Positions 1-29,749 of a stretch of 32,000 bases of DNA are shown here, one piece after another. The translations under genes and the position numbers were made by a program. Source of the stretch: Aciduliprofundum boonei T469 (GTDB taxonomy: Archaea > Thermoplasmatota > Thermoplasmata > Thermoplasmatales > Aciduliprofundaceae); contig NC_013926.1 of assembly GCF_000025665.1 (NCBI RefSeq), forward strand, positions 1,350,001 to 1,382,000. Reading direction: 5' to 3'. Every line of letters begins with the position of its first letter. Position 1 is the stretch's first letter. Below the pieces are notes generated by a model that saw only the letters and a list, made by a program, of their open reading frames with translations, ran no database searches and was not told where the DNA came from.

Positions 1-139
1 AGAGAATCCTGCCAATCCCCACTTTGCCCAGAGAAATATAATCACTAAGGGAGCCATAGTAGAGACGGATTTGGGGAAGGTTAAAGTTACTTCCAGACCT
101 GGACAGCATGGAGTGCTCAATGGAGTGCTCTTAGAATGA
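1..139 (+). CDS. rps8e: 30S ribosomal protein S8e, C-terminal fragment (5' end lies upstream of the window)
   Basis: Translation from nt 2 gives [45 protein letters not shown]. This matches the conserved archaeal S8e C-terminus (..[34 protein letters not shown]). The stop TGA at 137-139 overlaps the next gene's ATG (ATGA). Confidence 0.8.
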
Positions 140-399
140 GCGTAATCATTTACCCTGCCTATTTTAATATTCATTATTCTCGCAAGCAGGGGCGTAGAGT
201 TCCCAAAAATCTTGCTTTTGATCCAAAACTTGAAACTATTGCAAAAGCTGCCAGAGAATTAGGGTATGAAGTTGAAATAGAGCCTGATAAAAGATACCCA
301 AGATTCTGGTGGAGTGAAAGGGGAAGAATAATTATCGATACAGATGAGCCAAAGAACGAGGTTATTAAGAAGATAGCAAGAAAAATAAGAAATGTTTAA
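136..399 (+). CDS. srp19: signal recognition particle protein SRP19
   Basis: 87 aa. The N-terminal pattern [17 protein letters not shown] and the DKRYPR motif are typical of archaeal SRP19. Translationally coupled to rps8e. Confidence 0.85.
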
Positions 400-743: not shown

Positions 744-1295
744 TTAGAGCTTCATATTCTCAGCGAAAATTTTTGCACTTCCCTCTTCTATATGACATAT
801 TCTTATCCTTTTTATACTTGTGTTTTTGAAATCTTTTATGAATTTTGATATCGCCCTCCCAAATATCTCTGCAGCCCTATCTTTGGGAAATCCATAGATA
901 CCCGTGCTTATTGCAGGCATAGATACACTTTTCACTCCTAACTCATTCGCTTTTTTAAGTGTATTATAAACAGCATTAAAAAGAAGAGAATCCTCGTTAT
1001 TATTTCCCCCTCTCCAAATAGGTCCAACGGCATGAATTACATACTTTGCATTTAATTTTCCGGCGGATGTAACGGCAACTTCACCTGTGGCAACAGGACC
1101 ATACTTTTTCACATACTCATCACTTTCTCTCTGTATCTCGTATCCTCCTTCCTTTACTATGGCCCATGCCACTCCCCCACCATGCTTCAAACTTGAGTTT
1201 GCAGCATTCACTATTGCTTCGCTATCATCCTTAGTTATATCACAGATTGAAATCTCTATTTTTATACCGCCTATTTCCCACTTTTTAAGAAGCAT
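744..1295 (-). CDS. macro domain protein (ADP-ribose / O-acetyl-ADP-ribose binding or hydrolysing, MacroD/AF1521-like)
   Basis: 183 aa with the hallmark motifs DITK...AIVNAANSSLKHGGGVA, VIHAVGP and MPAISTGIYGFP. Confidence 0.85.
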   Translation of the reverse strand: MLLKKWEIGGIKIEISICDITKDDSEAIVNAANSSLKHGGGVAWAIVKEGGYEIQRESDEYVKKYGPVATGEVAVTSAGKLNAKYVIHAVGPIWRGGNNNEDSLLFNAVYNTLKKANELGVKSVSMPAISTGIYGFPKDRAAEIFGRAISKFIKDFKNTSIKRIRICHIEEGSAKIFAENMKL

Positions 1296-1309: not shown

Positions 1310-3034
1310 TTAATCTCCATTAAATTTTCTCTTGAATGCGAGTATTGCTAAGAGAAGTATAATAAATAGAAAATATGGGATGTCAAATTCTGGTACATAA
1401 TTTGCATAGTTTCCCGCAATCCAAGCACTTTTGTTTTCCCAGTATATCTCGTACCAGGTGATGTCCTCATCGCTGTTATATTTCTGTCCCTTCTTGGCAA
1501 AGAGCATTCCATCATAAACTGAGCCAAGTATGGTGTTAGATGTTCCAGCCCCAGAGCGAACATGCAGGGAGGAGGAGACATTTACTACAAATATATCAGA
1601 ATATGCCATTTCAGTGTACCATGCAGCACACCAACCCACCCTGTCATCGTAGAAGAACTGCCACCATTTGCGCCCTGATGAATCAATGCTATAATTGTAT
1701 GCAACGAACTCTTGATTCTCTGGCACAGTTCCTATTATGCCATAACTCGTGCTTGGACCTGTTCGAATATTGAGAGCAGTGGCAGTAACTCGAAATACCT
1801 GCATAAATTTCTTGGTTCCATTCGGTATATGGTAAAAATTTACAAGGTCATACTTAGATGGGAAAAACGAGGATATGGATACATTCCATTCATCGGGAGA
1901 ATGAGTGGCTATGTAAAGATTGTCTTCATTCCTATATGTTACTATACCTGCATATATGTAATGCTCACCATTTGAGTCTCCAAATATGACCACATCCCCT
2001 TTTTCTATCCATTCAGGAACTGTAAAATTTGAAGCAAGATAGTACGAAAATTTTGCATTCTGATACTCTCTGAGATTCTCATTCAGATACTTTGGATTTA
2101 TCATTGAGCCATTGTAATTTAAAGCCCCATCGCCTTTACCATCATATCCTCTCCAGAGAGATATTCCTCCTGCTATCAATACCTGAGAAACGAAATTTGT
2201 GCTCTCCTCGCTGGAGTTTGAAAATTTCTGGTAATGGGAATTGTCGGAAGAGTACCACTTATAAGCATAACCTAAAGCACCCGCTCTATCATAATAGGGG
2301 AGAGTACACGAGCCACCTATAACAAAATTATCTATGAGGGATTTTAAATTTCCATTGTAATAATCCATATCCACATTGCCACTCACCCCCGATACATTTC
2401 CCTCGTCTGTGTACTGCCAGAATGCCCAGGAGTCCCAAATTCCCGTGGAAGGGGACGAAACTCTATAATTGGCTATCCAGAGATTCCATTGAGATACGGA
2501 GGAATCAAGGTAGTTTTCAGCATAATTTGGATTCGTGTAAATTATTGGCTTTATACCCGTTAAATTGAATACTTCAATCATAAATTCATTTACCCAACTT
2601 GATAAGCTCTCTTTTCCTAAGGATGATCCTTCTTCTAAATCCAAAACGGGTCTCAAATATCCACTCTTCAGATATGTTTTTATGGTATCTACAAAATGCT
2701 CTGCGGCCTCTTTTGCATTATAATTTTCAGGTTCTGCAAAGTGATAGGCACCAACATACAATCCTGATGCGTGTGCCTTCTCCATATTTTCTTCAAAATC
2801 CGGGTCCACATAAGATGTCCCCTCTGTGGCCTTTACAAATGCAAAGATTATCCCGGAATTTTTAACTTTAGTCCAGTTCACATTTCCCTGCCAGTGGGAA
2901 ACATCTATACCCTTAATGCTGGAGGATGTTTTGAAATATAAACTCTCTTTTTGATTGCTACCATAACCTATGGCAAAAAATATAGCATTAAGAATCAGTA
3001 TGAATACCACAAACCAAACTATTGGCCTTTTCAT
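1310..3034 (-). CDS. secreted, membrane-anchored GH25 muramidase (Chalaropsis-type lysozyme) with an amidase-like middle domain and two SH3b domains
   Basis: 574 aa. N-terminal hydrophobic signal or anchor (residues 5-24). GH25 motifs GIDVSHWQG, FAFVKATEG, GAYHFA, catalytic LDLEEG (D-x-E), FWQYT and GVSGNVDMDYYNG. Middle domain resembles the putative amidase family (..STNFVSQVLIAGG.., ..ATHSPDEW). Two SH3b-like repeats (ALNIRTGPSTSYGIIGTV.., SLHVRSGAGTSNTILGSV..). C-terminal PEF + TM helix + KRK. Confidence 0.9.
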   Translation of the reverse strand: MKRPIVWFVVFILILNAIFFAIGYGSNQKESLYFKTSSSIKGIDVSHWQGNVNWTKVKNSGIIFAFVKATEGTSYVDPDFEENMEKAHASGLYVGAYHFAEPENYNAKEAAEHFVDTIKTYLKSGYLRPVLDLEEGSSLGKESLSSWVNEFMIEVFNLTGIKPIIYTNPNYAENYLDSSVSQWNLWIANYRVSSPSTGIWDSWAFWQYTDEGNVSGVSGNVDMDYYNGNLKSLIDNFVIGGSCTLPYYDRAGALGYAYKWYSSDNSHYQKFSNSSEESTNFVSQVLIAGGISLWRGYDGKGDGALNYNGSMINPKYLNENLREYQNAKFSYYLASNFTVPEWIEKGDVVIFGDSNGEHYIYAGIVTYRNEDNLYIATHSPDEWNVSISSFFPSKYDLVNFYHIPNGTKKFMQVFRVTATALNIRTGPSTSYGIIGTVPENQEFVAYNYSIDSSGRKWWQFFYDDRVGWCAAWYTEMAYSDIFVVNVSSSLHVRSGAGTSNTILGSVYDGMLFAKKGQKYNSDEDITWYEIYWENKSAWIAGNYANYVPEFDIPYFLFIILLLAILAFKRKFNGD

Positions 3035-3058
3035 TTAAAGGTAGTATAAGCTCCAGCG

Positions 3059-3072
3059 ATAAAAATTTTATG
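3059..3072 (-). promoter_or_regulatory. TATA-like element for the lysozyme gene (near-leaderless transcript predicted)
   Basis: On the minus strand, ATAAAATTTTTATC lies about 25-30 nt upstream of the ATG at 3034. Assignment is by position only. Confidence 0.3.
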
Positions 3073-3085
3073 TCATTGCAAAGAA

Positions 3086-3095
3086 TTAAATATTT
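3086..3095 (+). promoter_or_regulatory. TATA-box-like element driving the C/D sRNA and probably the downstream gene
   Basis: TTAAATATTT lies about 20-25 nt upstream of the sRNA 5' terminal stem (3110) and C box (3114). This is the expected TATA-to-TSS distance in archaea. Confidence 0.35.
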
Positions 3096-3109
3096 TCAAA
3101 GAATTCCTA

Positions 3110-3166
3110 ATCTGTGATGAAAAGAGGGTCAGCTGATAAGATGATGAGCCCTATGAGTGCTGAGGT
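3110..3166 (+). ncRNA. box C/D sRNA (2'-O-methylation guide RNA)
   Basis: C box GTGATGA at 3114-3120, 12-nt spacer, D' box CTGA at 3133-3136, TAAG linker, C' box ATGATGA at 3141-3147, 12-nt spacer, D box CTGA at 3160-3163. Flanking AUC (3110-3112) and GGU (3164-3166) can form a terminal stem that leaves a 3-nt kink-turn bulge. Confidence 0.75.
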
Positions 3167-3173
3167 GATTTAA

Positions 3174-3758
3174 ATGAAAAGTATTGAAGAGCTTGTTAAA
3201 AGAGCGAGAGAGCTGAAGGAGAAGGGTCTGGATACAAAGGAGATAGCAACAGAGTTGCATTTATCCACGAATACCGTGGAATGGTTACTCACAAAGGGGA
3301 TTGGAGGAGAGGCACCCAAGGATGTGAAAATAGGGTGGAGAAGCATAGGGATATATCCCTACAGAATATCTAAAATTGCAGAAATAATGAGTGATATAAT
3401 CCTTGAAGAGATGGAGAAGAGACAATTTGATGTTGATTCTATTGTTGGAATTCTAATAAATGGTATTCCATTTGCAACTTTCATCGCGGAGGAATTGAAT
3501 GTTGAATTGATAATATACAGGCCGCATCCCAAGATGGAAGAGGGAGCATTCTCGAGTAATTATGCCCATATAGAAGGAAAGAAAGTAGTAATTGTAGATG
3601 ATGTCATGAGCACCGGTGAAACTTTGAGAAAGGCGATAGATGATATAAAAAATGCAGGTGGTGAGCCAGTGCTTAGTGTTGTGCTCGTGAACAAAACTCC
3701 CTGGGATGAGGTAAACGGAGTACCATTAAGGGCTCTAATTCGTGCAAGAACTTTATGA
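3174..3758 (+). CDS. HTH + phosphoribosyltransferase-domain protein (orotate PRTase-like; GfcR/PyrE2-type transcriptional regulator)
   Basis: 194 aa. N-terminal HTH-like segment (GLDTKEIATELHLSTNTVEWLL) followed by a type I PRTase domain with the PRPP loop VVIVDDVMSTGETL. SD GGTGAT at 3164-3169. Confidence 0.75.
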   Translation: MKSIEELVKRARELKEKGLDTKEIATELHLSTNTVEWLLTKGIGGEAPKDVKIGWRSIGIYPYRISKIAEIMSDIILEEMEKRQFDVDSIVGILINGIPFATFIAEELNVELIIYRPHPKMEEGAFSSNYAHIEGKKVVIVDDVMSTGETLRKAIDDIKNAGGEPVLSVVLVNKTPWDEVNGVPLRALIRARTL

Positions 3759-3965: not shown

Positions 3966-4502
3966 TTACAACGCATCCTTAATTAAATCTCCCAATGTTA
4001 ATCCACCACTCTTCTTTGTATCCTTGCGATAAACGGTGGATACTTTTTCTTTAAGCTTGATATCCAACGCCTTTTCTAATTTCTTTATTAGCTTTTCATC
4101 AGGGTGCATTTCTCCCCTTTCAATCTTTGAGATAACCGTTTTCTTTTCAAGTATTTTTTTGGCAAGTTGCTCTTGAGTTAGCCCCATCTTCTCCCTCGCT
4201 TTCCTTATAACTTCTGGGTAATCTTCAATTAGTACTTCCTCCTCATCCAGATAATCCTTTCTTCTTCTCCTCTGCTTCCTCTCCAACCTCTCCCTTACAA
4301 CTTCAGGGGGCAGATATTTCACATCCTTTGGTATTTCATTTCCTTTAATCTCTTTGCCGAATTTGGCGCAATCATCACAAACATTCATAATCACGCCTTC
4401 TATCACAACTTTATGTAATCGTGGTACATTTTTGCCACATAATTCACAAATCATAATCTCACCAAATCTCCCATGCCTTTCCGATATATATTTTTGTTCC
4501 AT
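3966..4502 (-). CDS. mbf1: archaeal multiprotein-bridging factor 1 (aMBF1): zinc ribbon + HTH (XRE-type)
   Basis: 178 aa. N-terminal CxxC..CxxC (CELCGK...CDDCAKFG), basic linker, and a C-terminal cro/C1-type HTH (LTQEQLAKKILEKKTVISKIERGEMHPD). Confidence 0.85.
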   Translation of the reverse strand: MEQKYISERHGRFGEIMICELCGKNVPRLHKVVIEGVIMNVCDDCAKFGKEIKGNEIPKDVKYLPPEVVRERLERKQRRRRKDYLDEEEVLIEDYPEVIRKAREKMGLTQEQLAKKILEKKTVISKIERGEMHPDEKLIKKLEKALDIKLKEKVSTVYRKDTKKSGGLTLGDLIKDAL

Positions 4503-7850: not shown

Positions 7851-9071
7851 TTATATATCTCTGTATTTTTTTATTTCCCAATCTGTTATGGCTTGCAAAA
7901 ACTCTTCAATTTCTAATTTCTTCATATCTATGAATGTATCGTACAGCTCATTACCCAAAGCGTATTTTACAAACTCATCGCTTTCCATAAGCTCTATTGC
8001 ATCTTCTAGAGATTCCGGCAATGCAGGGTACTCTTTAAGTTTCTCTTTTGATAGGGCATAAAGATCATAATCCACTGGCTCTGAGGGCTCAATTTTTTTC
8101 TTTATTCCATCCAAACCTGCAAGAATGATCAAAGAGAAAGCAAGATATGGATTTGCGGAAGAATCTGCATTACGTACTTCTATATCCTTCATCCTTGCCG
8201 GAACCCTAATTAAAGTACTTCTATTTCTATACCCCCAAGCCAAATACCTTGGAGCTTCAAGTCCTCCATTTAAACGCTTATAAGAGTTTATAGTCGGATT
8301 AGTCAGTGCTGTTATATATGGCATATGCTCTAATATTCCTCCTATAAAATACCGCGCTTCTTGGGATATTTCATTATCTCCCCGAAATATGTTTTCTCCA
8401 TTCTTTTTCAAGAACATGTGAATGTGCATACCATTACCCGCCATATCTTTCTTTAACTTGGGCATATATGTCACAGCCATGCCCATATCCTTTGCGAGCC
8501 ACTTTGACACAATTTTCGTATATATGGTATAATCACAAGTAAGCTCAACCCCATCAATCCACAAAAGCTCAACTTCAATTTGCCCAGAAGCATTCTCGTG
8601 GTGATGGTACCTTATAGGAATTCCCATATCTTGAACTGCTTCGCTCACCTTTTTCCGGTATTCAAATGTGACATCAGAGTATGGCGGCTCAAAATAATGT
8701 GTATTGCCCCTACCATTTTCATTTAGAACAAAGAATTCTAATTCTGGACGAAGAACTGCCTCATAACCCATTTCTTTCAAAGCCAAATCCGCTTTTTCAG
8801 CTACATTTTTTGGATCTTTATCGAAAGCATTATCCTCATAGTATGTTTTTAAAAGAACCAAATACTCATCATGCCTCCATGGAATTTTTACAAAAGTTCT
8901 CATATCCGGCTTAGCAACCAAATCTGAGCGATTTACCGATGCGAATCCGGGAATAGAAGAGCCATCGATTCCGATACCATTTTTGAAGAAGGATTCATAA
9001 TCCTTCCTGAGGGCTATAGTGTGAACCTTTCCCATTATATCCGTTAGATTTGCATAAACCCACTCTGTCAT
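7851..9071 (-). CDS. glutamine synthetase family protein (divergent GS-I paralogue; possible gamma-glutamyl-amine ligase)
   Basis: GS motifs are retained: IDGSSIPGF, RPELEFFVL, HHHENASGQIEVEL, AGNGMHIHM, NSYKRL, LIRVPA and EVRNADSSANPYL. The ORF-track start at 9101 is TTG. The first ATG (9071, MTEWVYANL..) is preferred, with a TATA-like element at about 9112-9122. Confidence 0.8.
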   Translation of the reverse strand: MTEWVYANLTDIMGKVHTIALRKDYESFFKNGIGIDGSSIPGFASVNRSDLVAKPDMRTFVKIPWRHDEYLVLLKTYYEDNAFDKDPKNVAEKADLALKEMGYEAVLRPELEFFVLNENGRGNTHYFEPPYSDVTFEYRKKVSEAVQDMGIPIRYHHHENASGQIEVELLWIDGVELTCDYTIYTKIVSKWLAKDMGMAVTYMPKLKKDMAGNGMHIHMFLKKNGENIFRGDNEISQEARYFIGGILEHMPYITALTNPTINSYKRLNGGLEAPRYLAWGYRNRSTLIRVPARMKDIEVRNADSSANPYLAFSLIILAGLDGIKKKIEPSEPVDYDLYALSKEKLKEYPALPESLEDAIELMESDEFVKYALGNELYDTFIDMKKLEIEEFLQAITDWEIKKYRDI

Positions 9072-9372
9072 AAGGAATAGGAATACTCTCCCATATATCA
9101 ATCTTTGGAAGTGTTAAATATACTAACAAAATATTGGGTTCAATAAAAATTAACTTTGCTAATATTATCCCATCCAGACAGAGTCGCTTTACTAGGAATT
9201 CCCAACAAATGCCTTGAGGTAAAAGAGAATTAAAGCTGCAAACACATCATAGAAAGCAGGGCTATGACATCTATTTTCTAATTTACTACAAAAATTATTT
9301 TATTTCTTTGGGAGTAAAGCACCTTTCCTTTAGGGAAGAGGGTAGAGGGAGAAACCGTAGGTGTCTCCTCAG

Positions 9373-10586: not shown

Positions 10587-11894
10587 TCATTCCCAAGATA
10601 CTATCTCCTTAACCTCATCCTTCGCCTGTTCTCTCTTCTCTTGAAATTCTTTGAGCCAATTGTAAATTATATCTGCCGCTTCTCTTTTGCATGGACCACA
10701 TACCCTCTTACCTTCCCTACAAGATTCATGTATATCTTTAAGATATGAATCATCATCTATTAGGTGATAAACGAATAGTTCATAAACGGAGCATATATCT
10801 GGGTTCCCACCGTATTTTCTATGCTCCTCAAGAGTTACTCCACCCCCCGTTTTAGCGCGCATAACTTTTTTTCTTGCCTCTTCAGGTGAATCTGTCAGAA
10901 ATATAGCACTTTCAGGAATGGATGAGGACATCTTTCCGCCAGTTAATCCAGTCATAAGGCGATGATAGGTGGCTGCTGGAGGATAAAACGCATTTTCGTT
11001 GAATTCCTTCTCGTAGGAGATTATTGCTCTATCAATTCTTATCCAATCTTCTTTTTGTGAATCGAGTATATAAAGAGCCTTATATGGCACATTTATTTTG
11101 AACTGAGAAAATCCAGATGCTTCAAGATAAGATATTAGATTTTTCAGTTTTTTCTCTGCATCCTCACCCTTATAGAATACGGCTAATGTAGCACCCTGTT
11201 GAGATATGCTAAACATTCTCCACCTTCCTACAATATCTCTCGTTAGACGCATATGGGGATCTTGATCCACGCCCACAGGTACAATAGTGGGCCTTGGGCC
11301 CCCAAATTTCTCAAGCTGAACATGGAGTATGTCCCCAACCTGAACCAACGGAGAGAATAAATGGCTCATATTGTCTTCTCCTGAAAAACCATAAATTGCA
11401 AGAAACTCACTCATATTCACTTTCTTTGCAAGTTTCCATGCTATATCTTTAACTTCTTGCCGTTTAGATTGGAAATAAACCTCAGTTCTAGCAGGATCTA
11501 AACCCAAAGCTATATAGCTCGGGACATACTCTTCCAAAGCAATTCTCTCAGCATCCTTTAAAGGTATACCACGAAACGAGTATGCCTCTATATCTGCAAC
11601 AGCAATATGGACATCAGCACCTTGAGATTGATAATAGCGAACTTGCTCAATGGTCATTTTGTGTCCAAAATGCATATTTCCCGAGGGCATTAATCCAGTT
11701 AAAACAGCAAAATTCCTGTTATTCTTTATGGCATCATAAATGTATTCAAATCCCCTGTGCCCAAATATAACTCCCCTGCGGAAGAGAATAGGGGCATCGG
11801 GCAAATCAAAATTAAATGGGGCTATACCAAACTGGTCCCGAAGCTTTGCATAATCTTTGTACTGCTGTGATGACCATGGATTTATGAGCTGCAT
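10587..11894 (-). CDS. trpS: tryptophanyl-tRNA synthetase (archaeal/eukaryotic type) with a C-terminal Cys4 motif
   Basis: 435 aa. Class I signatures PSGNMHFGH (HIGH) and KMSSS (KMSKS). The N-terminal extension and overall pattern are typical of archaeal TrpRS. C368-x23-C392-x6-C399-x2-C402. Confidence 0.8.
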   Translation of the reverse strand: MQLINPWSSQQYKDYAKLRDQFGIAPFNFDLPDAPILFRRGVIFGHRGFEYIYDAIKNNRNFAVLTGLMPSGNMHFGHKMTIEQVRYYQSQGADVHIAVADIEAYSFRGIPLKDAERIALEEYVPSYIALGLDPARTEVYFQSKRQEVKDIAWKLAKKVNMSEFLAIYGFSGEDNMSHLFSPLVQVGDILHVQLEKFGGPRPTIVPVGVDQDPHMRLTRDIVGRWRMFSISQQGATLAVFYKGEDAEKKLKNLISYLEASGFSQFKINVPYKALYILDSQKEDWIRIDRAIISYEKEFNENAFYPPAATYHRLMTGLTGGKMSSSIPESAIFLTDSPEEARKKVMRAKTGGGVTLEEHRKYGGNPDICSVYELFVYHLIDDDSYLKDIHESCREGKRVCGPCKREAADIIYNWLKEFQEKREQAKDEVKEIVSWE

Positions 11895-15616: not shown

Positions 15617-15684
15617 TTTTCTTCAAAATTTTTATATTTTTATTTCACATATCCTTTTTCAAAAAAAATTAAAAAGAGGTGATT

Positions 15685-17346
15685 ATGATGAAAAGGTTAG
15701 TGGTGGTTGGCATAATGCTCTTACTTCTCATTAATGTAGGTGCCAGTGTAACCTATGCCCAATCGGACTCAAACAAATGGGGCTACAAATTAAATATAAA
15801 TCTCCAAAATGAGTTTCAACCATATTTGAAGGTACTCACAGATATGATGGTAACCAATTACAATAAAATGAACCAATCATATCAGATAAGCTCATACGAT
15901 GTAGGGCTAAACGGAAATGTGAAGATGGCAGGTGCAATGAAAAAGGATGGTGCCAATATGTTATTTGATACAGGCTCTTCCACAAATGCAAATTTGAGCT
16001 TTTATTTCAACGGCACATTTCCATATTCTAACAATGTTACAAACTTCATAAATAATAATTTCGAGCCAAGAAATATGAATATCTCTGCAAAAACTAACAT
16101 TATCCAAACAGCTATTTCCAACGGAACAGCGTTTACGGATGGCAAAGGAAATGTTTCCAAAATAATCTCAAAAAATACCAATTTTGCAAAGGTGCATATT
16201 AAAGGAAAGAATTTGCCAATACCAGCCATGCTTTATGCAGCTTTAAATGAAAAATACACAAAAATTGATTATGTGAATATAACATGGAAGGCTAGTTTCC
16301 TTTCAAATATTTCAACTCCAAGTGATTTGTATTTTTCAGTTGAATTAAATGAAGAGATAAACAATAAAAAAGTGAATTTGATAAAGATTTCCGATATAAG
16401 TTTGTATGATGAGAACTTAAGCTTGAGCATTAAAGATGTGAACCATAATGGGCTATTAGACACGGGAGATATTATAGGTATTCATGGAAATCTAAGTTAT
16501 ATTCAACATCTTATAGAGCACGATAAATCTGTAGTTCTCCATATACCGTTTGAATATAAAGGGCACATAATTTATGTGGAACCAGATTTTTCCTACTTTT
16601 TTGGCCAATGGTGGAGCTCTTCAGTTAGCATATCCACTATAGTCCAAAGCATACCTACGCAATACATGGGGATAATAGATCAATTTTCAAATATGTCTCC
16701 ATATGATAATTTCGATTTCACAATAGAAACAGAATACAATAGGAATGCTACGATAAGTTTTTCACCAGCATTGCCTTTAATGCCAACCTCCAAGCACAAT
16801 TTAACAATGAGCATAAATGGAAACTACTCAGGAGTAATAAAGATAATAGGGCTTCAAGAGAAATACATTAAGATGTTAGAATTGCTACTCAACAAAACAT
16901 TTACAATAAATGGCAATGTGGCAGAATACTTCTTCAATGGTAATTTCTCAAAATCTAAAAACATAAGTTCACCTACTCTCCATATCAGTGGAGAGATGCA
17001 ATACGGCGGGGAGAATGTATATGTGGTGCAAATTATGAATACAAATGATACTTGGAATCCTTCCCAAATACACAATTTCCACTTCTACTATTTCTATTCT
17101 AAATCCAAGGGATTCATAGTTGGTGGAGGCATAAACTTAGGGATAAAGAAATTTGACACAGAGCCCACAACTTATGAAAATGCAATGAACGAAATTAAAT
17201 CAATACAGAAAGAGGAAAAATCAGAGAGCAATAACCCAAGCAATTCTGCAGGTCCTTCATGGCTCATACCTCTATCCATAGGCATTATAATTATCGTAAT
17301 AATTGCAGTAATAGCCATAGCCTTCACAAAGAGAAAAGGAAAATAA
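15685..17346 (+). CDS. secreted, C-terminally anchored Asn-rich surface (glyco)protein, orphan (possible S-layer or envelope protein)
   Basis: Signal peptide MMKRLVVVGIMLLLLINVGASVTYA. About 19 N-x-S/T sequons. C-terminal TM helix followed by KRKGK. Strong SD GAGGTGAT and an A/T-rich promoter region upstream. No family recognised. Confidence 0.6.
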   Translation: MMKRLVVVGIMLLLLINVGASVTYAQSDSNKWGYKLNINLQNEFQPYLKVLTDMMVTNYNKMNQSYQISSYDVGLNGNVKMAGAMKKDGANMLFDTGSSTNANLSFYFNGTFPYSNNVTNFINNNFEPRNMNISAKTNIIQTAISNGTAFTDGKGNVSKIISKNTNFAKVHIKGKNLPIPAMLYAALNEKYTKIDYVNITWKASFLSNISTPSDLYFSVELNEEINNKKVNLIKISDISLYDENLSLSIKDVNHNGLLDTGDIIGIHGNLSYIQHLIEHDKSVVLHIPFEYKGHIIYVEPDFSYFFGQWWSSSVSISTIVQSIPTQYMGIIDQFSNMSPYDNFDFTIETEYNRNATISFSPALPLMPTSKHNLTMSINGNYSGVIKIIGLQEKYIKMLELLLNKTFTINGNVAEYFFNGNFSKSKNISSPTLHISGEMQYGGENVYVVQIMNTNDTWNPSQIHNFHFYYFYSKSKGFIVGGGINLGIKKFDTEPTTYENAMNEIKSIQKEEKSESNNPSNSAGPSWLIPLSIGIIIIVIIAVIAIAFTKRKGK

Positions 17347-20865: not shown

Positions 20866-20885
20866 TTTAAAATACATTGATTCCT

Positions 20886-22199
20886 ATGCAGGAGGAAATT
20901 TTAAAAAATGTTAGGGAAAAAAGGGTAAAATACATACATCTGCAGTTTATGGATATTTTGGGACAAGTGAAGAGTGTTATGATTCCTAATATAATGCTAG
21001 AGAAGGCCCTGAGTGAGGGGATAGTTTTTGATGGTTCTAGCATAGCAGGATATGCAACTATTGATGAAAGTGATATGCGTGCTGTGCCCGATGCAAACAC
21101 ATTCCAAATAATGCCTGATGATCCTAAAACTGCCACAATAATATGCGATACATACTTACCAAATGGAAAGAGATTTGAAGGAGACCCGAGATATGTTCTT
21201 CAAAGAATTCTAAAGAAGGCGGAAGATAAAGGGTTTAGATTCGTAACAGGCCCTGAATTTGAATTTTTTCTCTTTAAAATGAATGATGGGAAACCCAGCT
21301 TAGAGCCGAATGACTATGGAGGATACTTTGATTTTGGACCTGTGGATAAAGGCGAGGAAGTGCGCAAAGAAATAGTTGGGATATTCGCAGATATGGGTTA
21401 TAAGCCCGAAGCAACTCATCATGAAGTGGCTCCTGGACAGCACGAGATAGATCTGAGATACGGTTATGCCCTAACAATTGCAGATAGAATTTTAACTTTA
21501 AAAGCAATGATTAAAAGGGTGGCTCTAAAACATGGACTATACGCTACCTTCATGCCAAAGCCGATATTTGGTATAAATGGTACGGGAATGCATGTGCATC
21601 AGAGCTTGCTCACTCTTGATTTTGAAGGCAACAAATTCTATGATCCTAACGGAAAATGGCAATTAAGCGATATTGCCTTGCATTATATAGGAGGACTGTT
21701 AAAGCATGCAGATGAAACAACTGCCATTTTGAATTCTTGGGTTAATTCTTATAAAAGATTGGTTCCCGGATATGAGGCACCTGTATACATCTCTTGGGCA
21801 AATCTCAACAGAAGCGCTTTGATTAGGGTACCTGCAGGTAGGGGCATAAAAACTAGAATTGAGCTAAGAAATCCCGATCCTGCTGGAAATCCATATTTGC
21901 AATTTGCCGTTATGCTAGCCGCTGGCTTGGATGGAATTGAAAAGAAGATCGAGCCACCAGAGCCCGTAGAGCAGAACATATACGCAATGAGCCCCGATGA
22001 AAGAAGGGAGAAAGGTATAAAATCCCTGCCTGAAAGTTTGGGAGAAGCCCTTCATCATTTAAGCAGAAGCGAATTCATGAAAAATATTCTCGGAGAGCAC
22101 ATATTCAATCATTTTCTGCATGTAAAGCGGAGAGAATGGGAGGATTACAGGGCACAGGTAACCCAGTGGGAAATTGATAATCTATTGCCGATACTCTAA
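20886..22199 (+). CDS. glnA: glutamine synthetase type I
   Basis: VKYIHLQFMDILG, FDGSSIAGY, GPEFEFFLF, HHEVAPGQHEIDL, NGTGMHVHQS, NSYKRLVPGYEAP and ELRNPDPAGNPYL. The ORF-track start at 20877 is TTG, so the ATG at 20886 is preferred. Confidence 0.9.
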   Translation: MQEEILKNVREKRVKYIHLQFMDILGQVKSVMIPNIMLEKALSEGIVFDGSSIAGYATIDESDMRAVPDANTFQIMPDDPKTATIICDTYLPNGKRFEGDPRYVLQRILKKAEDKGFRFVTGPEFEFFLFKMNDGKPSLEPNDYGGYFDFGPVDKGEEVRKEIVGIFADMGYKPEATHHEVAPGQHEIDLRYGYALTIADRILTLKAMIKRVALKHGLYATFMPKPIFGINGTGMHVHQSLLTLDFEGNKFYDPNGKWQLSDIALHYIGGLLKHADETTAILNSWVNSYKRLVPGYEAPVYISWANLNRSALIRVPAGRGIKTRIELRNPDPAGNPYLQFAVMLAAGLDGIEKKIEPPEPVEQNIYAMSPDERREKGIKSLPESLGEALHHLSRSEFMKNILGEHIFNHFLHVKRREWEDYRAQVTQWEIDNLLPIL

Positions 22200-22223: not shown

Positions 22224-23357
22224 ATGCAACTAATGGATGAAAAAGAAATAGAGGATTTGCTGCAAAAATACTACCTTAAAGATATGCATTATGAAGATGG
22301 AAAAATCCTAGGCTCAATGTACACCAAGCCACCAGAAATTGCATTAAAGGCATTTTTCAAATTTTATCAAGCCAATTTGGGAAATCCGGGATTGTACAAA
22401 GGCACTGTGGAGATAGAAAGAGAGGTTGTAAAATTCCTGTTGAGATTAACATCTGGCAAAGATGATTTTTTCGGCCATGTGGTAAGTGGAGGCACTGAAG
22501 CGAATGTAATAGCCCTCTGGGCTGCAAGGGAGATGGGCTACAAAAGAGTACTTGCTACTCAAGATGCTCATTTCTCAATAAGAAAGGCAGCAAATTTACT
22601 TAAATTATCATTGGAAAATGTAGAAATAATAAAGGGAAGAATGAGTATTGAAGACCTTGAGAGAAAAATAAAAGGGGGGGATATAATAGTAGCGACTGCA
22701 GGTACAACACCTCTTGGATTTATAGATCCAATCGAGGAAATAGGAAAAATTTGTGAAATGCATAATTGCTTTCTGCATGTGGATGCTGCCTTTGGAGGCT
22801 ATGTTATACCATTTTTGAGAGAATTGGGGTATACAAATAAAAAATTTGGATTTGATATTTCGGCCGTTAGAACAATTACCATTGACCCCCATAAAATGGG
22901 TATGGCACCGTATCCTGCCGGAGGAATTGTGAGCAAAGAGAACATATTTGAGAAAATAGAAATAGAAGCACCATACTTGATGGTGGGAAAGAATGAGGGT
23001 TTGCTAGGTACAAGGCAAAGTGGGAGTGTTGCAGCAGCATACGCAGCCCAACTATACTTTGGATGGGATGGATACAGAGAGATAGTAAAGAAATGTATGG
23101 AAAATACAAATTACCTTGTAAAAAGGGCAAGAGAGGAGAATTTTGAGATTTTAGAAATGCCTGAAATGAACATAGTAAATATAAAAATTAAGAATGTGGG
23201 GAAAGTGAAAAAGGAATTGTATGCAAGGGGATGGGGTATTTCCACAAATCCAAAGTATTCATCATTGAGGATAGTTGTAATGCCCCATGTGACAAAAGAA
23301 ATTATAGATGAATTTCTAGGTGAGCTTAAAAATATAAAAAAGAGTTATGGGTTATAG
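22224..23357 (+). CDS. mfnA: group II PLP decarboxylase MfnA (L-tyrosine / L-aspartate decarboxylase)
   Basis: 377 aa. SGGTEANVIALWAARE, HVDAAFGG and DPHKMGMAPYPAGG (PLP lysine) match the archaeal MfnA pattern. Confidence 0.8.
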   Translation: MQLMDEKEIEDLLQKYYLKDMHYEDGKILGSMYTKPPEIALKAFFKFYQANLGNPGLYKGTVEIEREVVKFLLRLTSGKDDFFGHVVSGGTEANVIALWAAREMGYKRVLATQDAHFSIRKAANLLKLSLENVEIIKGRMSIEDLERKIKGGDIIVATAGTTPLGFIDPIEEIGKICEMHNCFLHVDAAFGGYVIPFLRELGYTNKKFGFDISAVRTITIDPHKMGMAPYPAGGIVSKENIFEKIEIEAPYLMVGKNEGLLGTRQSGSVAAAYAAQLYFGWDGYREIVKKCMENTNYLVKRAREENFEILEMPEMNIVNIKIKNVGKVKKELYARGWGISTNPKYSSLRIVVMPHVTKEIIDEFLGELKNIKKSYGL

Positions 23358-24238
23358 TGATGTCCGTACTTGGCCCACCAAGCATCAACTTGCTCTTGCA
23401 ATTTTTTCACATACTCTGGATTCTTAAGAAGATGCCTAAATCTCCCCTGCGGTTTCAGATACTCCTCAACTGGCTTGAATTTCTTTGGCTTGTATGTTAT
23501 GCGCATATTCTCAAGGTCTCCGTCAACAACTTCCCAGAGCGGGAATATACCAGTATCGGATGCAAGTTTCATTATCTCAACAGTTTTGCTTGGGTCATGT
23601 CTCCATCCAGTGGTGCAAGAGGATATGACATGCAAGAATCTTGCACCCTCGTAACTTAATGCCTTTTGTACTTTCTTCTTGAAATCATTGAATATCGCCG
23701 GATTTGCTGTGGCGACATACTTGGCATTATGGGCTGCTATTATTCTAGCCACAGGTTTTTTAGGCTGTAATTTTCCAATTGGATTTGCACTTCCTACCTT
23801 GCTAGTTGTTGTCCAAGCGCCCCAAGGCGTGGCTCCGCTTCTCTGTATGCCTGTGTTCATATACGCCTCATTATCGTAGAGAACATACAATACATTATGT
23901 CCACGCTCAACCATACCACTGAGTGCTTGGAATCCTATATCCGCAGTACCGCCATCGCCACCAAACGCAATTATATTCAATTTCTCACCCTTTGCACGGG
24001 CAGCTGCTTCAATACCACTGGCCGCAGCGGCAGCGTTTTCAAAGGCCACATGGAGCCAAGGTACGCGCCAAGAGGTGCGAGGATATGCCGTTGTTGCAAC
24101 TTCCAAACATCCTGTAGCATTAACTACTATTGTATTAGGACCAGCAAGTTTGAGAACCCATTTGACGATTATGGGTGCAGCGCAACCAGCGCACATTCCG
24201 TGCCCCGGTGCAAAAAACTCTTCTTTTTCGTAATTCAT
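23345..24238 (-). CDS. 2-oxoacid (pyruvate/2-oxoisovalerate):ferredoxin oxidoreductase, beta subunit (TPP-binding)
   Basis: 297 aa. FAPGHGMCAGC, GGDGGTADIG and YDNEAYMNTG. POR and VOR cannot be told apart by eye. Confidence 0.85.
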   Translation of the reverse strand: MNYEKEEFFAPGHGMCAGCAAPIIVKWVLKLAGPNTIVVNATGCLEVATTAYPRTSWRVPWLHVAFENAAAAASGIEAAARAKGEKLNIIAFGGDGGTADIGFQALSGMVERGHNVLYVLYDNEAYMNTGIQRSGATPWGAWTTTSKVGSANPIGKLQPKKPVARIIAAHNAKYVATANPAIFNDFKKKVQKALSYEGARFLHVISSCTTGWRHDPSKTVEIMKLASDTGIFPLWEVVDGDLENMRITYKPKKFKPVEEYLKPQGRFRHLLKNPEYVKKLQEQVDAWWAKYGHHYNP

Positions 24239-25431
24239 ACCAATCCCTCCGCTTTAAGCACAGCTTCCTTATTTACATCAACCCAGTTAACCTCATCCAC
24301 ATCTTCCTTCAATGCCTTCTCTGCAATCTCTACAACCTCGCCTAATGACTTGAATGTTATGTCTCTTCCTCCAAGTCCAATGATGAAATCAATGATTTTT
24401 GGCTTCTTGCTCTCATTGGCAAATGTGGCGGCTAGCTCGGCATAAACAGCTCCTCCAAAGCCGAAGGATATGTTTCTCTCTAACACGGCAACTACAGGTA
24501 CATCCTTTAGCAATGCTCTTAATTCTTCCTTTGGAAACGGCCTGAATGTCGTGAGCTTGAGCAATCCCACCTTCTTACCTTCTTTTCTCAATTTCTTAAC
24601 AAATTCCCTAGTTGTGGAAGTCATGGAACCCATTGTAACTAGGACAATATCCGCATCCTCCAAGAATTCTGGAGTCACCTTGGAGTACTTCCTTCCAAAT
24701 TTGTTGTGGAACTCTTCAAACACTTCGTCTATAACCTTCTTGGCACGCTCCATCGCAATCCACTGCCCATACTTGAATTCCATAAAGTACTCTGGAAATC
24801 CAAATGCTCCCAATGTAGCTGGTTTCTCCGGGTCTAGAGTTACATAATGAGGTACAAACTCGCCCAAGAAATCGTCCACATCCTTCTGTTCTGGAATCTC
24901 CACTGGCTCTACTGTGTGAGTTAGCACGAATGCATCGATACCCACCATCGCTGGAAGTAGGATTCTCTCATCTTCCGCTATCTTAAATGCCATTATACCC
25001 AAATCCAAGCCCTCTTGATTGCTCTCAGCATAGAACTGCATCCAGCCAGTATCACGCTGTGCCATCATATCTTGGTGGTCGCACCATATGTTTATTGGTG
25101 CACTCAAAGCCCTATTTCCTATGCCCATAACTATGGGCAAGCGCATACCAGAAGCTATGAAAAGAACTTCATGCATTAAAGCAAGGCCTTGAGATGCTGT
25201 AGCAGTACCAACACGCACACCGTGGGCACTTGCACCTATGGCAGCGGAGATTGCGCTATGCTCACTTTCCACGGGTACAAATTCGGCATCCATCTCTCCA
25301 TTTGCCAAGAACTCACTTATCTTTTCAGGAACTAAAGTAGAAGGTGTGATGGGATACGCAGGTATTACTTTCACTCTAGCAAGCTTGAATGCATACGCTA
25401 TTGATTCATTACCTCTAATCATCGCCTTCAT
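24235..25431 (-). CDS. 2-oxoacid:ferredoxin oxidoreductase, alpha subunit
   Basis: 398 aa. GNESIAYA...VIPAYPITPST, SEHSA.SA..GAS..G.R. The 4-nt overlap with the beta subunit gene indicates an operon. Confidence 0.85.
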   Translation of the reverse strand: MKAMIRGNESIAYAFKLARVKVIPAYPITPSTLVPEKISEFLANGEMDAEFVPVESEHSAISAAIGASAHGVRVGTATASQGLALMHEVLFIASGMRLPIVMGIGNRALSAPINIWCDHQDMMAQRDTGWMQFYAESNQEGLDLGIMAFKIAEDERILLPAMVGIDAFVLTHTVEPVEIPEQKDVDDFLGEFVPHYVTLDPEKPATLGAFGFPEYFMEFKYGQWIAMERAKKVIDEVFEEFHNKFGRKYSKVTPEFLEDADIVLVTMGSMTSTTREFVKKLRKEGKKVGLLKLTTFRPFPKEELRALLKDVPVVAVLERNISFGFGGAVYAELAATFANESKKPKIIDFIIGLGGRDITFKSLGEVVEIAEKALKEDVDEVNWVDVNKEAVLKAEGLV

Positions 25432-27630: not shown

Positions 27631-28689
27631 GTGAAAATAGCATTTGGAGTGTGCTCTCTTGGAATAGGACATGCCACGAGGAGTGCTCCCATAATAGCAA
27701 AGCTCGTAGAGGAAGGACATGAAGTGGTAATAATCACCTATGGTAGAGCTGCTGATATATTAAAAAAGGAGTTTCCTTATCTGAAAGTTTACGAAATTCC
27801 AGATTTTCCCATTCAATATCCTGAGAGAGCACACCAGTTCATTCCCTACATATTTATGAATTCAAACAAGATTGCAAGATCAATATTTAAAGCCCATAAA
27901 AATTTTTTAGGCTTGCATGAGGAACAAAATTTTGATTTAATTATCTCTGACAGCAGATTTGATGTTTTTCATAGAAATGTGCCTTCATTTCTTATAATTC
28001 ATCAACTTAGAATTATGGTTCCTCTTCACATTTTAAGAGCAGGAATATTGGTGTATAACGCATACATATCCAGATTCTTCAAAAAAATCCTTGTTCCAGA
28101 TTTCAGAGAGAATTCTTTGAGTGGGGATATGTCCCACAATCTCAAGATAATTGATGGAAATAAAATTGAGTACATAGGCCCGTTGTCTCCATTCAAGCAC
28201 CGAGATTTACCGAGGGATATAGATGTTTTGATTTCAATATCTGGGCCTGAACCACAGAGAACTCTCTTTGAGAGAAAGATTATGAAAAGTATTGATGGGT
28301 TGGATGGAAATATAGTTATAACCCTGGGCAAACCTGATGAGAAAATTAGAAATGATGACTTAAAAATATATTCATATCTAACTATGGATGAGAGAGAAGA
28401 AATAATGAATAGAAGTAAGCTTATAATTTCTCGTTCAGGGTACTCTACGATCATGGATTTGTACGCCATAGGTGGAAAAGCCATGTTTGTTCCCACTCCC
28501 GGCCAGCCAGAGCAGGAGTATCTGGCAAGGTACTTGGAGCGTAGAGGTATTGCAGGATATATGACACAGGAAAATTTGGATTTGAGAGAAATTATAAGTA
28601 GAGCAGGTAATTATAGCGGCTTCAAAGGAAAATATGATACTCGTATCTCAGTTGAAAATGCCATAAGGGTGATCACCGAATGGAGTTAA
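27631..28689 (+). CDS. GT-B glycosyltransferase (GT28/MurG-like C-terminal domain; MJ1255/TIGR00661-like family)
   Basis: 352 aa. N-terminal glycine loop CSLGIGHATRS. C-terminal SRSGYSTIMDL...GKAMFVPTPGQPEQEYLARYLE is typical of the GT28 C-terminal domain. GTG start. Confidence 0.7.
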   Translation: MKIAFGVCSLGIGHATRSAPIIAKLVEEGHEVVIITYGRAADILKKEFPYLKVYEIPDFPIQYPERAHQFIPYIFMNSNKIARSIFKAHKNFLGLHEEQNFDLIISDSRFDVFHRNVPSFLIIHQLRIMVPLHILRAGILVYNAYISRFFKKILVPDFRENSLSGDMSHNLKIIDGNKIEYIGPLSPFKHRDLPRDIDVLISISGPEPQRTLFERKIMKSIDGLDGNIVITLGKPDEKIRNDDLKIYSYLTMDEREEIMNRSKLIISRSGYSTIMDLYAIGGKAMFVPTPGQPEQEYLARYLERRGIAGYMTQENLDLREIISRAGNYSGFKGKYDTRISVENAIRVITEWS

Positions 28690-29702: not shown

Positions 29703-29749
29703 TCGCACCTCATTATCTATCAGAGATGGGACAAGAAGGAGAAAAATAT

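Follow-up and report, generated by a model that had tools for sequence, protein, structure and literature searches.

The Aciduliprofundum boonei lysozyme Aboo_1416: a known antibacterial GH25 muramidase with a putative sorting tail, a serine-variant Amidase_6 domain and mostly archaeal nearest relatives

The coding sequence at 1310-3034 of the window, the whole 32,000-nucleotide stretch of the Aciduliprofundum boonei T469 genome analysed here, is the known and published lysozyme gene Aboo_1416. With good confidence its product can be regarded as a peptidoglycan hydrolase of bacterial ancestry that is exported to the surface and used by a murein-less archaeon against neighbouring bacteria. Four details were not found in the two papers that treated the protein before (Metcalf et al. 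2014; Strock et al. 2025): a putative C-terminal sorting tail, a serine in the active site of the Amidase_6 domain, the archaeal affiliation of the nearest named relatives, and the evolutionary rate and relocation of the gene.

Identity of the gene and previous work

The open reading frame list gave a protein of 574 amino acids with an ATG start. An exact-sequence look-up showed residue-for-residue identity to ADD09223.1, WP_008084055.1, Aboo_1416 (439481.Aboo_1416) and UniProt B5ID12, the name under which the lysozyme is cited in PMC12352652. Metcalf et al. (2014, eLife 3:e04266, PMC4241558) reported a gene of 1725 bp with App-1 (macro) and PRT genes as neighbours. Size and flanks agree with the coding sequence in the window, thus both are the same gene, a possibility raised in an earlier note on this DNA. 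In that study Aboo_1416 was presented as a horizontally acquired, bactericidal GH25 muramidase: the purified GH25 domain killed bacteria, the full-length protein was toxic in Escherichia coli, and in co-culture with a bacterium the gene was up-regulated and a relative fitness gain was observed (PMC4241558). The assays were performed at 37 °C, compared to pH ~4.5 and ~70 °C for the organism, and without a knockout. The toxicity of the full-length protein could partly originate from over-expression of a protein with two hydrophobic helices. A term search in the main text of Metcalf et al. (2014) revealed no mention of Amidase_6, hydrophobic termini or a sorting signal. The domain combination SH3_3+Amidase_6+Glyco_hydro_25 is listed for Aboo_1416 and for six further proteins in the S2 table of Strock et al. 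(2025, PLoS Biol 23:e3003235). The multi-domain architecture, considered worth examining in the earlier note, is real, but had already been tabulated.

Table 1 Features of the lysozyme gene and its surroundings (positions in the window)
Feature	Position	Strand	Basis or remark
S8e C-terminus, frame 2	1-135		S8e gene at the same position in syntenic loci
SRP19	136-399		Pfam
Macro-domain (App-1) gene	744..1295	-	Pfam; 14 nt after the lysozyme stop
Lysozyme CDS, complete (574 aa + stop)	1310..3034	-	ORF list; exact match Aboo_1416 / B5ID12; 1725 bp as in Metcalf 2014
Putative PEF-CTERM-type tail, residues 547-570	1325..1396	-	TIGR03024; P548/E549 invariant; predicted helix 554-571
SH3b repeat 2, residues ~483-544	1403..1588	-	Second SH3_3 stretch; PDB 2kt8 at 483-544, 4krt domain 2
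SH3b repeat 1, residues 420-474	1613..1777	-	PF08239; PDB 2krs, 2kq8, 4krt
Amidase_6 papain-like domain, Pfam 248-389, structural domain ~238-410	1868..2293	-	PF12671; AF2; Foldseek
His378 codon, conserved dyad partner	1901..1903	-	Family tally and orthologues
Ser278 codon (family Cys position, presumed nucleophile)	2201..2203	-	Column tally and orthologue comparison
GH25 muramidase domain, residues 43-217	2384..2908	-	PF01183; PDB 4krt, 1jfx and others; pLDDT >90
N-terminal hydrophobic segment, residues ~1-27	2954..3034	-	Kyte-Doolittle windows >1.6; predicted helix 3-21
Divergent intergenic region	3035..3109	.	Two conserved AT-rich (TATA-like) blocks
Box C/D sRNA	~3110..3165	+	Directly upstream of the PRT gene; C 3114-3120, D' 3133-3136, C' 3141-3147, D 3160-3163
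MBF1-like gene	3966-4502
Class-I W/Y tRNA synthetase	10587-11894		Pfam cannot tell TrpRS from TyrRS

Muramidase and SH3b domains

The Glyco_hydro_25 profile matched over its entire length (PF01183, E 5e-53, 180.4 bits at a gathering score of 27, profile positions 1-180 of 180). The catalytic acidic residues D44, D132, E134 and D222 were invariant among 16 orthologues; D132 and E134 belong to the motif LDLEEG (residues 131-136). The segments GIDVSHWQG and LDLE aligned with cellosyl (1jfx) and Psm (4krt) in their catalytic region. SH3_3 (PF08239) was found in two stretches above its gathering score (58.9 bits, E 6e-16), and SH3b structures in the PDB matched residues 416-475 and 483-544. Together with the Amidase_6 profile, likewise above its gathering score, these results confirmed the complete GH25 domain with its D-x-E pair, the amidase-like middle domain and the two bacterial-type SH3b repeats that the earlier note had read from the sequence. 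The best solved match was Psm, the endolysin of Clostridium phage phiSM101 with a GH25 and two SH3_3 domains (PDB 4krt, E 2.6e-44). Both its GH25 domain (lysozyme residues 34-237, identity ~39 %) and its tandem SH3b pair (417-535) aligned. However, Psm lacks the Amidase_6 insert and membrane segments and lyses its host from within, whereas Aboo_1416 would be an exported surface protein.

The combination of GH25 and SH3b is a classic endolysin architecture, and endolysin families of PHROGs matched the GH25 part (E 3e-54). That the gene belongs to an integrated virus as its endolysin, or to the remnant of a provirus, is nevertheless hardly conceivable. Neither holin, capsid, integrase nor another viral gene was present nearby, the flanks being S8e, SRP19, MBF1, PRT and the C/D sRNA, and we rejected a provirus on this neighbourhood evidence. 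Phages matched in the GH25 part only, with at most 43 % identity, and covered no more than 38 % of the protein. Membrane segments at both termini are atypical for endolysins, and a virus of a murein-less archaeon would not need a muramidase. Throughout the boonei clade, moreover, the locus is stable.

Termini and the putative sorting signal

Hydrophobic segments were located at residues ~1-27 and 546-571, and the full-length AlphaFold model placed helices at 3-21 and 554-571, with a low-confidence linker at 18-37. The N-terminal segment is a candidate for a signal peptide of the Sec pathway or for a signal anchor that is not cleaved off, in line with the signal or anchor proposed in the earlier note. 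In the S2 table of Strock et al. (2025, PLoS Biol 23:e3003235), the SignalP-6 column is blank for Aboo_1416; apparently no signal peptide was called.

For the C-terminus a membrane anchor had been proposed. The hydrophobic helix was found, and the tail motif and TIGR03024 refine the assignment to a putative PEF-CTERM-type sorting signal. The extreme C-terminus is tripartite, VPEF-DIPYFLFIILLLAILAF-KRK, consisting of motif, hydrophobic helix and basic cluster, the arrangement of the PEF-CTERM/archaeosortase C sorting system (TIGR03024) reportedly described by Haft and colleagues in 2012. The score of the Aboo_1416 tail lies only at the threshold: the full-length protein reached 20.4 bits, below the curated cutoff of 23, and the isolated tail of 40 amino acids 26.9 bits (E 4e-6). 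Only 2 of 16 orthologues reached E ≤0.01, tail-only scans of relatives stayed below threshold, and in full-length NCBIfam scans of relatives the short sorting models were not among the matches. P548 and E549 were invariant in the 16 orthologues, while the motif is loosened to PE[FLIV] among them, another difference from the described system. The tail is thus a putative archaeal sorting signal of the PEF-CTERM type with a score at the threshold and a conservation in all 16 orthologues. Besides the lysozyme orthologues, no PEF-tailed open reading frame was detected in the window and the DHVE2 loci; one chance match was inside an Mrp antiporter subunit.

Amidase_6 domain with serine in the cysteine position

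The middle domain matched Amidase_6 (PF12671) with E 2e-15 and 57.6 bits at a gathering score of 23.2. Its AF2 model (pLDDT 85.5) has a predicted papain-like, Tae3/Tae4-like fold, with Foldseek matches to YjcM (9a4p), Ssp (4bi3/4bi4), Tae3 (4hz9) and Tae4. The type VI secretion (T6SS) effectors Tae3 (4hz9), Tae4 (4hff, 4j32, 6ijf) and Serratia Ssp1/Ssp2 (4bi3, 4bi4) and Bacillus subtilis YjcM (9a4p) share the papain-like fold, with the nucleophile at a helix N-terminus and the histidine after a β-strand, and all are antibacterial or cell-wall-directed amidases; TM-scores to the Aboo_1416 domain were 0.4-0.6. The motif GDCANFVSQ..AGG resembles GRCAEYVRK..WGG of 4hz9, a sequence similarity that is not significant (E 0.9), and a profile of the Amidase_6 alignment had no significant match among PDB sequences. 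The effectors are delivered by the T6SS and use Cys-His, in contrast to the Ser-His domain of Aboo_1416 in its fusion to GH25 and SH3b.

Relatives of the domain were gathered by an exhaustive HMMER search, a word-index search with the isolated sub-sequence having missed even the parent protein. The nucleophile column of the family contained cysteine in 138 of 152 segments (91 %), serine in 10 and aspartate in 4. Aboo_1416 has Ser278 in this column, preceded by Glu277 where the family usually has aspartate. The second residue of the Cys-His dyad is present: His378 is invariant in the 16 orthologues and its column holds histidine in 124 of 133 family segments. With serine in the cysteine column, the domain is a Ser-His variant, non-canonical by its active site.

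It is well possible, though short of an even chance, that in A. boonei the Amidase_6 domain has lost its catalytic activity and was kept only as a structural or peptidoglycan-binding module in a mono-functional muramidase. Ser278 and Glu277 speak for such a loss, and the domain has no alternative conserved cysteine; the only cysteines are C243 and C469. On the other hand, His378 was invariant, the motifs NFVSQ, AGG and GD around the active site were conserved, and dN/dS values of 0.21 and 0.06 for the domain revealed purifying selection. Furthermore, cysteine and serine alternated between the sister orthologues P0036/P0037 and P0034/P0038, and the pattern 'ES...H' recurred elsewhere in the family (P0165, P0203). 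An alternation of this kind would rather be expected of nucleophiles that can replace each other than of a decaying site.

Origin and evolution

Orthologues of the same architecture (n=16) occurred across Aciduliprofundales with 47-95 % identity. Whole-gene dN/dS values were 0.16 and 0.10, and purifying selection acted on every domain. The lysozyme was the fastest-evolving gene of its syntenic block. While the locus was stable across the boonei clade, divergent DHVE2 genomes carried the lysozyme at other loci, in three divergent lineages directly downstream of a gene for an alpha/beta-hydrolase or S9/S15-type peptidase.

In comparison to 28 other open reading frames, the lysozyme gene had small deviations in GC content (z=+0.06), GC3 (z=+0.27) and codon-usage score (z=-1.2) and is thus no composition outlier. 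The computed values bear out an impression gained by eye in the earlier note, where an ameliorated, older acquisition had been deduced; this age is supported by the normal composition and by orthologues that share the architecture at identities as low as 47 %. The inter-domain transfer postulated there agrees with the bacterial origin supported by Metcalf et al. (2014). In a neighbour-joining (NJ) tree archaeal sequences were nearest: DHVE2, Thermoplasmata and Hodarchaeota joined the orthologues first and Firmicutes branched much deeper, with bootstrap values <50 for all deep nodes.

The trees published in 2014 suggested a Firmicute of the Bacillaceae/Paenibacillaceae as direct donor to A. boonei. 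A recent transfer of this kind appears improbable. It would agree with the Firmicutes-dominated clade in these trees (PMC4241558), with the best bacterial and phage GH25 matches at 42-44 % identity, Paenibacillus, Alicyclobacillaceae and a Geobacillus phage among them, and with a clostridial phage endolysin as nearest solved architecture. Against it stand the best genome matches (48-56 %), which were all archaeal, the branching order of the NJ tree with its weak deep nodes, the fully ameliorated composition and the divergence of the orthologues. The nearest named Amidase_6 relatives came from Lokiarchaeia, Promethearchaeota and Thermoplasmata. Most of the top GH25 relatives had empty cluster names; for GH25 and Amidase_6 alike, the nearest relatives with a name were archaeal (Thermoplasmatota, Asgard) and not Firmicutes. 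Since the closest relatives now available belong to the archaea, the immediate donor can be named with less certainty than in 2014.

Genomic neighbourhood

The macro-domain gene was confirmed as downstream neighbour at the short distance noted before, and the two genes are possibly co-transcribed. Their linkage was restricted to the boonei-type clade, being present in the loci L087, L088 and L090 and absent in L081, L082, L084 and L089. Among the archaeal neighbours named in the earlier note, S8e, SRP19, MBF1 and the C/D sRNA were recovered, but the presumed tryptophanyl-tRNA synthetase only as a W/Y synthetase. PADLOC had no match for the lysozyme and the macro gene. Weak PADLOC matches of the PRT gene to ShosT/PsyrT were rejected as a generic PRTase fold. 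The window is rich in genes for peptidases (M42, M20) and amino acid catabolism, including aminotransferases and 2-oxoacid:ferredoxin oxidoreductase.

The intergenic region contains the AT-rich blocks ATAAAAATTTTATG (3059-3072) and AATTAAATAT (from ~3084), both kept in L087 and L088, as putative elements of divergent promoters. The divergently oriented C/D sRNA, noticed before, was substantiated by its boxes (C GTGATGA, D' CTGA, C' ATGATGA, D CTGA), two guides of 12 nt (AAAGAGGGTCAG, GCCCTATGAGTG) and its conservation: it was nearly invariant in L087 and L088, genomes whose lysozymes are 65-79 % identical. An Rfam scan of the sRNA assigned no family at its gathering score; full-length matches below gathering were obtained to sR41 (E 1.7e-9), sR3 (39.4 bits versus 41), sR20 and snoPyro_CD. 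A search for guide targets in the window and related loci, which is DNA without rRNA genes, revealed only self-matches.

Proposed function

To our knowledge, murein is absent in the lineage of A. boonei. A role of the lysozyme in the own envelope was rejected on this ground. The bacterial cell wall as target and an antibacterial role, as already proposed in the earlier note, are supported by the activity, toxicity and co-culture induction in Metcalf et al. (2014). We propose that the N-terminal hydrophobic segment directs Sec export of the ectodomain. The PEF-CTERM-type tail would retain the protein in the membrane, and processing by an archaeosortase may yield a lipid-anchored form. Owing to this retention or processing, the enzyme would not diffuse freely but be exposed on the cell surface or on vesicles that are shed. 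By homology, the two SH3b repeats are expected to bind bacterial peptidoglycan. The GH25 domain cuts the MurNAc-GlcNAc bond, as Metcalf et al. (2014) showed for the purified domain. With its Ser-His pair the Amidase_6 domain may add a second activity, the cleavage of peptide stems, or it may act as an extra binding module. The gene probably entered the Aciduliprofundales lineage long ago and has evolved there under purifying selection, faster than its neighbours, and the lysozyme would be one member of a larger group of archaeal surface proteins with GH25/Amidase_6 domains.

The same biochemistry could have another selective benefit. A. boonei ferments peptides, and lysis of bacteria and degradation of wall debris would supply them. 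Nutrient scavenging as the main role fits the peptidase, aminotransferase and oxidoreductase genes of the window and the position of the lysozyme behind hydrolase or peptidase genes in three divergent lineages. We consider it rather unlikely in view of the induction by a co-cultured bacterium and the relative fitness gain (Metcalf et al., PMC4241558), and the fast evolution in comparison to the neighbouring genes fits a conflict, without proving it.

Modular archaeal peptidoglycan hydrolases used against bacteria are also represented by Woldo and Danwoldo of Halogranum salarium (Strock et al. 2025). In contrast to Aboo_1416, these have M23 and glucosaminidase catalytic domains and PG_binding_1 instead of SH3b. 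They carry Tat signal peptides and are released to the supernatant, whereas Aboo_1416 has no called signal peptide and a putative C-terminal sorting tail.

A more far-reaching interpretation combines these observations. Aboo_1416 would be no freely secreted lysozyme but a surface-tethered antibacterial enzyme with two activities, acting by contact or vesicles, with an archaeosortase-processed PEF-CTERM tail and a functional Ser-His pair in the papain-like domain, alternating with Cys-His among the orthologues; the GH25-Amidase_6-SH3b cassette would have been assembled in archaea and exchanged between Thermoplasmatota and Asgard, rather than donated by a Firmicute to A. boonei. In this full form the interpretation is speculative and doubtful.

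The details added here build on published work and open no new question. With Aboo_1416, the use of a bacterial cell-wall hydrolase against bacteria was published for an archaeon for the first time. The sorting tail, if real, may bear on the deployment of the enzyme, which would be displayed on cells or vesicles. That purifying selection maintains a papain-like domain with serine for cysteine is a biochemical peculiarity open to experiment. Finally, archaeal sequences as nearest relatives suggest that, once captured from bacteria, weapons of this kind are passed around among archaea.

Identity and domain architecture of the lysozyme

An exact-sequence look-up identified the protein as ADD09223.1 / WP_008084055.1 / 439481.Aboo_1416 of Aciduliprofundum boonei T469. 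As the earlier note had guessed, this is the gene of Metcalf et al. (2014; PMC4241558), with 1725 bp and flanked by App-1, the macro-domain gene, and PRT, a phosphoribosyltransferase gene. In that study, the purified GH25 domain killed Bacillaceae and Paenibacillaceae dose-dependently, expression of the full-length lysozyme killed E. coli unless the gene was disrupted by IS1 insertions, transcription increased in co-culture with Mesoaciditoga lauensis, and topology tests rejected vertical descent. Strock et al. (2025; PMC12352652) cite the protein as B5ID12; their S2 table lists it as SH3_3+Amidase_6+Glyco_hydro_25 with a blank signal-peptide column, together with other Aciduliprofundales and one Lokiarchaeia entry. 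The exact match to Aboo_1416 and this table entry make the finding a known one, down to the multi-domain architecture. The earlier observation and its interpretation are both correct.

Features of the window, lysozyme domains and orthologue loci
Feature	Position	Strand	Remarks
S8e C-terminus	first 135 nt, frame 2		S8e gene at same position in syntenic contigs
SRP19	136-399		confirmed
DUF211 gene			between SRP19 and macro gene; confirmed
Macro-domain gene (App-1)	744-1295	-	starts 14 nt past lysozyme stop codon
Lysozyme ORF	1310-3034	-	ATG start, 574 aa
Glyco_hydro_25	residues 43-217		Pfam E 5e-53, full profile, above curated threshold
Amidase_6	residues 248-389		Pfam E 2e-15, above curated threshold
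SH3_3, two stretches			Pfam E 6e-16, above curated threshold
Box C/D sRNA	3110-3165	+	C 3114-3120, D' 3133-3136, C' 3141-3147, D 3160-3163
HTH-PRTase (PRT)	3174-3758	+	confirmed
MBF1-like regulator	3966-4502		confirmed
Glutamine synthetase paralogue	7851-9101	-
Class-I W/Y tRNA synthetase	10587-11894		confirmed
555-aa ORF	15679-17346	+
Glutamine synthetase paralogue	20877-22199	+
2-Oxoacid:ferredoxin oxidoreductase subunits	23345-25431	-	POR_N/PFOR_II, TPP_enzyme_C
Three-gene run	27631-31426	+
Divergent DHVE2 orthologue, L081	6001-7776		different locus
Divergent DHVE2 orthologue, L082	6001-7719		different locus
Divergent DHVE2 orthologue, L084	6001-7653		different locus
Divergent DHVE2 orthologue, L089	5001-6710		different locus

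The ORF, the complete GH25 domain, the amidase-like middle domain, the two SH3b repeats and the hydrophobic termini had all been read correctly from the sequence. The LDLEEG motif occupies residues 131-136, and D44, D132, E134 and D222 are unchanged in 16 of 16 orthologues. The top solved relative was the Psm endolysin (4krt, E 2.6e-44), and cellosyl (1jfx) was also among the best. Psm is a GH25+2xSH3b endolysin, and the lysozyme matches it in the GH25 part as well as in the SH3 pair. Against the rival reading of a provirus endolysin, which this likeness brings to mind, stand the lack of viral genes around the lysozyme and the phage records, topped by Geobacillus phages, that match the GH25 part only, with at most 43% identity. 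Hydrophobic segments cover residues ~1-27 and ~546-571; the full-length AlphaFold model (pLDDT 78) has helices at 3-21 and 554-571 around four folded modules, and two terminal membrane helices are predicted.

A putative PEF-CTERM-type tail

The proposed C-terminal membrane anchor held as a hydrophobic helix, but probably not as a generic one. The archaeal PEF-CTERM sorting model TIGR03024 (NCBIfam) matched residues 547-570 with 20.4 bits in the full-length protein (cutoff 23) and with 26.9 bits (E 4e-6) on the last 40 residues alone. The tail leads from VPEF over ~20 hydrophobic residues to KRK; P548 and E549 are kept in all 16 orthologues, the remainder varies. With a score near the cutoff, the tail nevertheless appears by sequence to be of PEF-CTERM type and not just any membrane anchor. 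By term search, neither Metcalf et al. nor Strock et al. mention such a tail in their main texts. Tails of archaeal type are also present at the C-termini of non-orthologous GH25 relatives with other architectures, e.g., VVPEFPST...KKKRK in beta-helix+GH25 proteins and a PGF-like tail in one PKD-rich GH25 protein, with sub-threshold matches to PEF-, PEFG-, Loki- and Heimdall-CTERM models. These tails on unrelated architectures suggest a broader set of surface-sorted archaeal muramidases. Among the retrieved homologues, P0040, P0042, P0063, P0071, P0074 and P0078 combine GH25 with NosD-like beta-helix, PKD or lectin_C parts and PEF-/PGF-/Loki-/Heimdall-CTERM-like tails.

The Amidase_6 domain

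An exhaustive HMMER search (E 1e-3 or better) yielded only 169 cluster representatives related to the Amidase_6 domain. In the alignment of these, the column of Ser278 has 152 segments, 138 with Cys, 10 with Ser and 4 with Asp; Asp comes just before it in 132 segments, where A. boonei has Glu, and the His378 column was His in 124 of 133. In the domain model (pLDDT 85.5, pTM 0.85), residue 278 lies at a helix N-terminus and His378 just past a strand. Foldseek matched this model to B. subtilis YjcM (E 8e-6), Serratia T6SS amidase effectors (E 4e-4 and 9e-4), Tae3, Tae4 and other papain-like enzymes. Given these matches, the modelled fold is that common to peptidoglycan amidases and endopeptidases, but the canonical nucleophile is absent. 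The cell-wall amidase-like domain of the earlier note stands by its fold, and it lacks the Cys usual in the family.

Two forms of the motif, 'GGDC' and 'xxES', switch among the 16 orthologues independently of the tree (P0036/P0037, P0034/P0038), while His378 is constant. At the nucleophile codon (2201-2203; alignment A1) they differ even between sister sequences. The switching could reflect repeated single-site change or recombination of two allelic forms. The missing cysteine invites the rival reading of a dead domain. For this domain, comparison with a relative of 95% identity gave a dN/dS of 0.21 and with one of 79% identity 0.06, close to the values of GH25 and SH3b, and the Amidase_6 domain is kept by selection. 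By sequence and model, it would either hydrolyse with a Ser-His pair or serve as a binding module.

Genomic neighbourhood

Of the neighbours in the earlier note, S8e, SRP19, the MBF1-like regulator and the C/D sRNA were borne out; the supposed TrpRS was seen as a class-I W/Y tRNA synthetase. The reported spacing to the macro gene was accurate, and the distance is 14-16 nt throughout the boonei clade. The macro gene may be co-transcribed with the lysozyme; Metcalf et al. (2014; PMC4241558) view it as a separate HGT. The PRT protein, highly conserved (98.5% and 93.3%), joins an N-terminal GerE/LuxR-like HTH to a phosphoribosyltransferase domain; its weak PADLOC matches (ShosT, PsyrT, PRTase_III-A) probably reflect the PRTase fold only.

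The 139-nt intergenic region between lysozyme and PRT carries the divergent box C/D sRNA of the earlier note. The element is very regular, all four of its boxes being perfect; its two 12-nt guides are AAAGAGGGTCAG and GCCCTATGAGTG, and only 9 nt separate its end from the start codon of PRT. No Rfam match reached the gathering threshold; a lenient scan gave full-length matches to several Pyrococcus-type C/D families that fall just short of it (sR41, E 1.7e-9; sR3, 39.4 bits, gathering 41). The sRNA is near-invariant in the relatives' loci L087 and L088, whose lysozymes are only 65-79% identical. No guide target was found in the window and the relatives' loci, DNA without rRNA.

Elsewhere in the window, the three-gene run encodes a GT1/GT28 glycosyltransferase with MurG-like C-terminal domain, an LPG_synthase_TM protein and a DUF2070 membrane protein; this suggests a membrane or glycoconjugate cluster, and the GT28-type match alone is no evidence of murein synthesis. 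The 555-aa ORF, which lies in the lowest-GC stretch (0.34), had no Pfam, PHROGs or PADLOC match. The oxidoreductase genes are the GC-richest stretch (0.44-0.46), which probably reflects the composition typical of highly expressed or conserved genes. The glutamine synthetase paralogues lie <13 kb apart, and in L084 and L089 the alternative lysozyme locus likewise has a GlnA gene close by.

Evolutionary origin

Full-length orthologues of the same architecture ranged from 95% to 47% identity, the named ones being Aciduliprofundum or 'Euryarchaeota'. Throughout the boonei-type clade, whose members go down to 65% identity, the order S8e-SRP19-DUF211-macro-lysozyme/PRT-MBF1 is fully kept. In the more divergent DHVE2 genomes (L081, L082, L084 and L089) the lysozyme lies elsewhere. 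In MAR08-339 it adjoins AspRS and a Na/H exchanger; in the three others it directly follows a gene of alpha/beta-hydrolase or peptidase S9/S15-like type, with which it may be functionally paired. The lysozyme is the fastest-evolving protein of the conserved block (78.6% and 65.3% identity versus 85-98% and 75-96% for nine neighbours); the macro gene is second (84.7% and 75.4%).

Species-representative genomes were scanned for GH25, and archaea took all of the first six places (48-56%; Thermoplasmata, DHVE2, UBA202), ahead of bacteria of many phyla with at most 45%, among them Paenibacillus and Alicyclobacillaceae with 43-44%. A rough NJ tree covered 195 GH25 domains, with sampling biased to matches of the query; in it, the orthologues were joined first by DHVE2/Thermoplasmata, next by Hodarchaeota and unnamed sequences and much deeper by Firmicutes, all deep nodes having bootstrap values <50. 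The nearest named Amidase_6 relatives were Lokiarchaeia, Promethearchaeota and Thermoplasmata. A bacterial origin of the lysozyme stands, because the GH25 family is overwhelmingly bacterial and phage-borne. A recent direct transfer from a Firmicute, the rival reading nearest to the 2014 'Firmicutes' inference, has against it these archaeal relatives and an inconspicuous composition: as noted by eye before, GC (z = +0.06), GC3 (z = +0.27) and codon usage (z = -1.2) lie within the spread of the 28 other ORFs. Judged from sequence comparison, the immediate donor appears less certain than inferred in 2014, and a spread among archaea is plausible.

Mode of action

Muramidase-type killing by the GH25 domain, E. 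coli toxicity and co-culture induction are published (Metcalf et al. 2014; PMC4241558), with nutrient scavenging as a rival reading of the killing; the present analysis established that the catalytic residues are intact and all domains selectively maintained. The N-terminal segment would direct Sec export, the PEF-type tail would hold the protein on the archaeal surface, where an archaeosortase may process it, the SH3b repeats would target peptidoglycan and the Ser-His papain-like domain may add a second cleavage activity. Export of the ectodomain to the periplasm would also account for the killing of E. coli from within by the full-length protein. What is left over for this known lysozyme are modest, testable refinements on its anchoring, its Ser-variant domain and its archaeal-to-archaeal spread.
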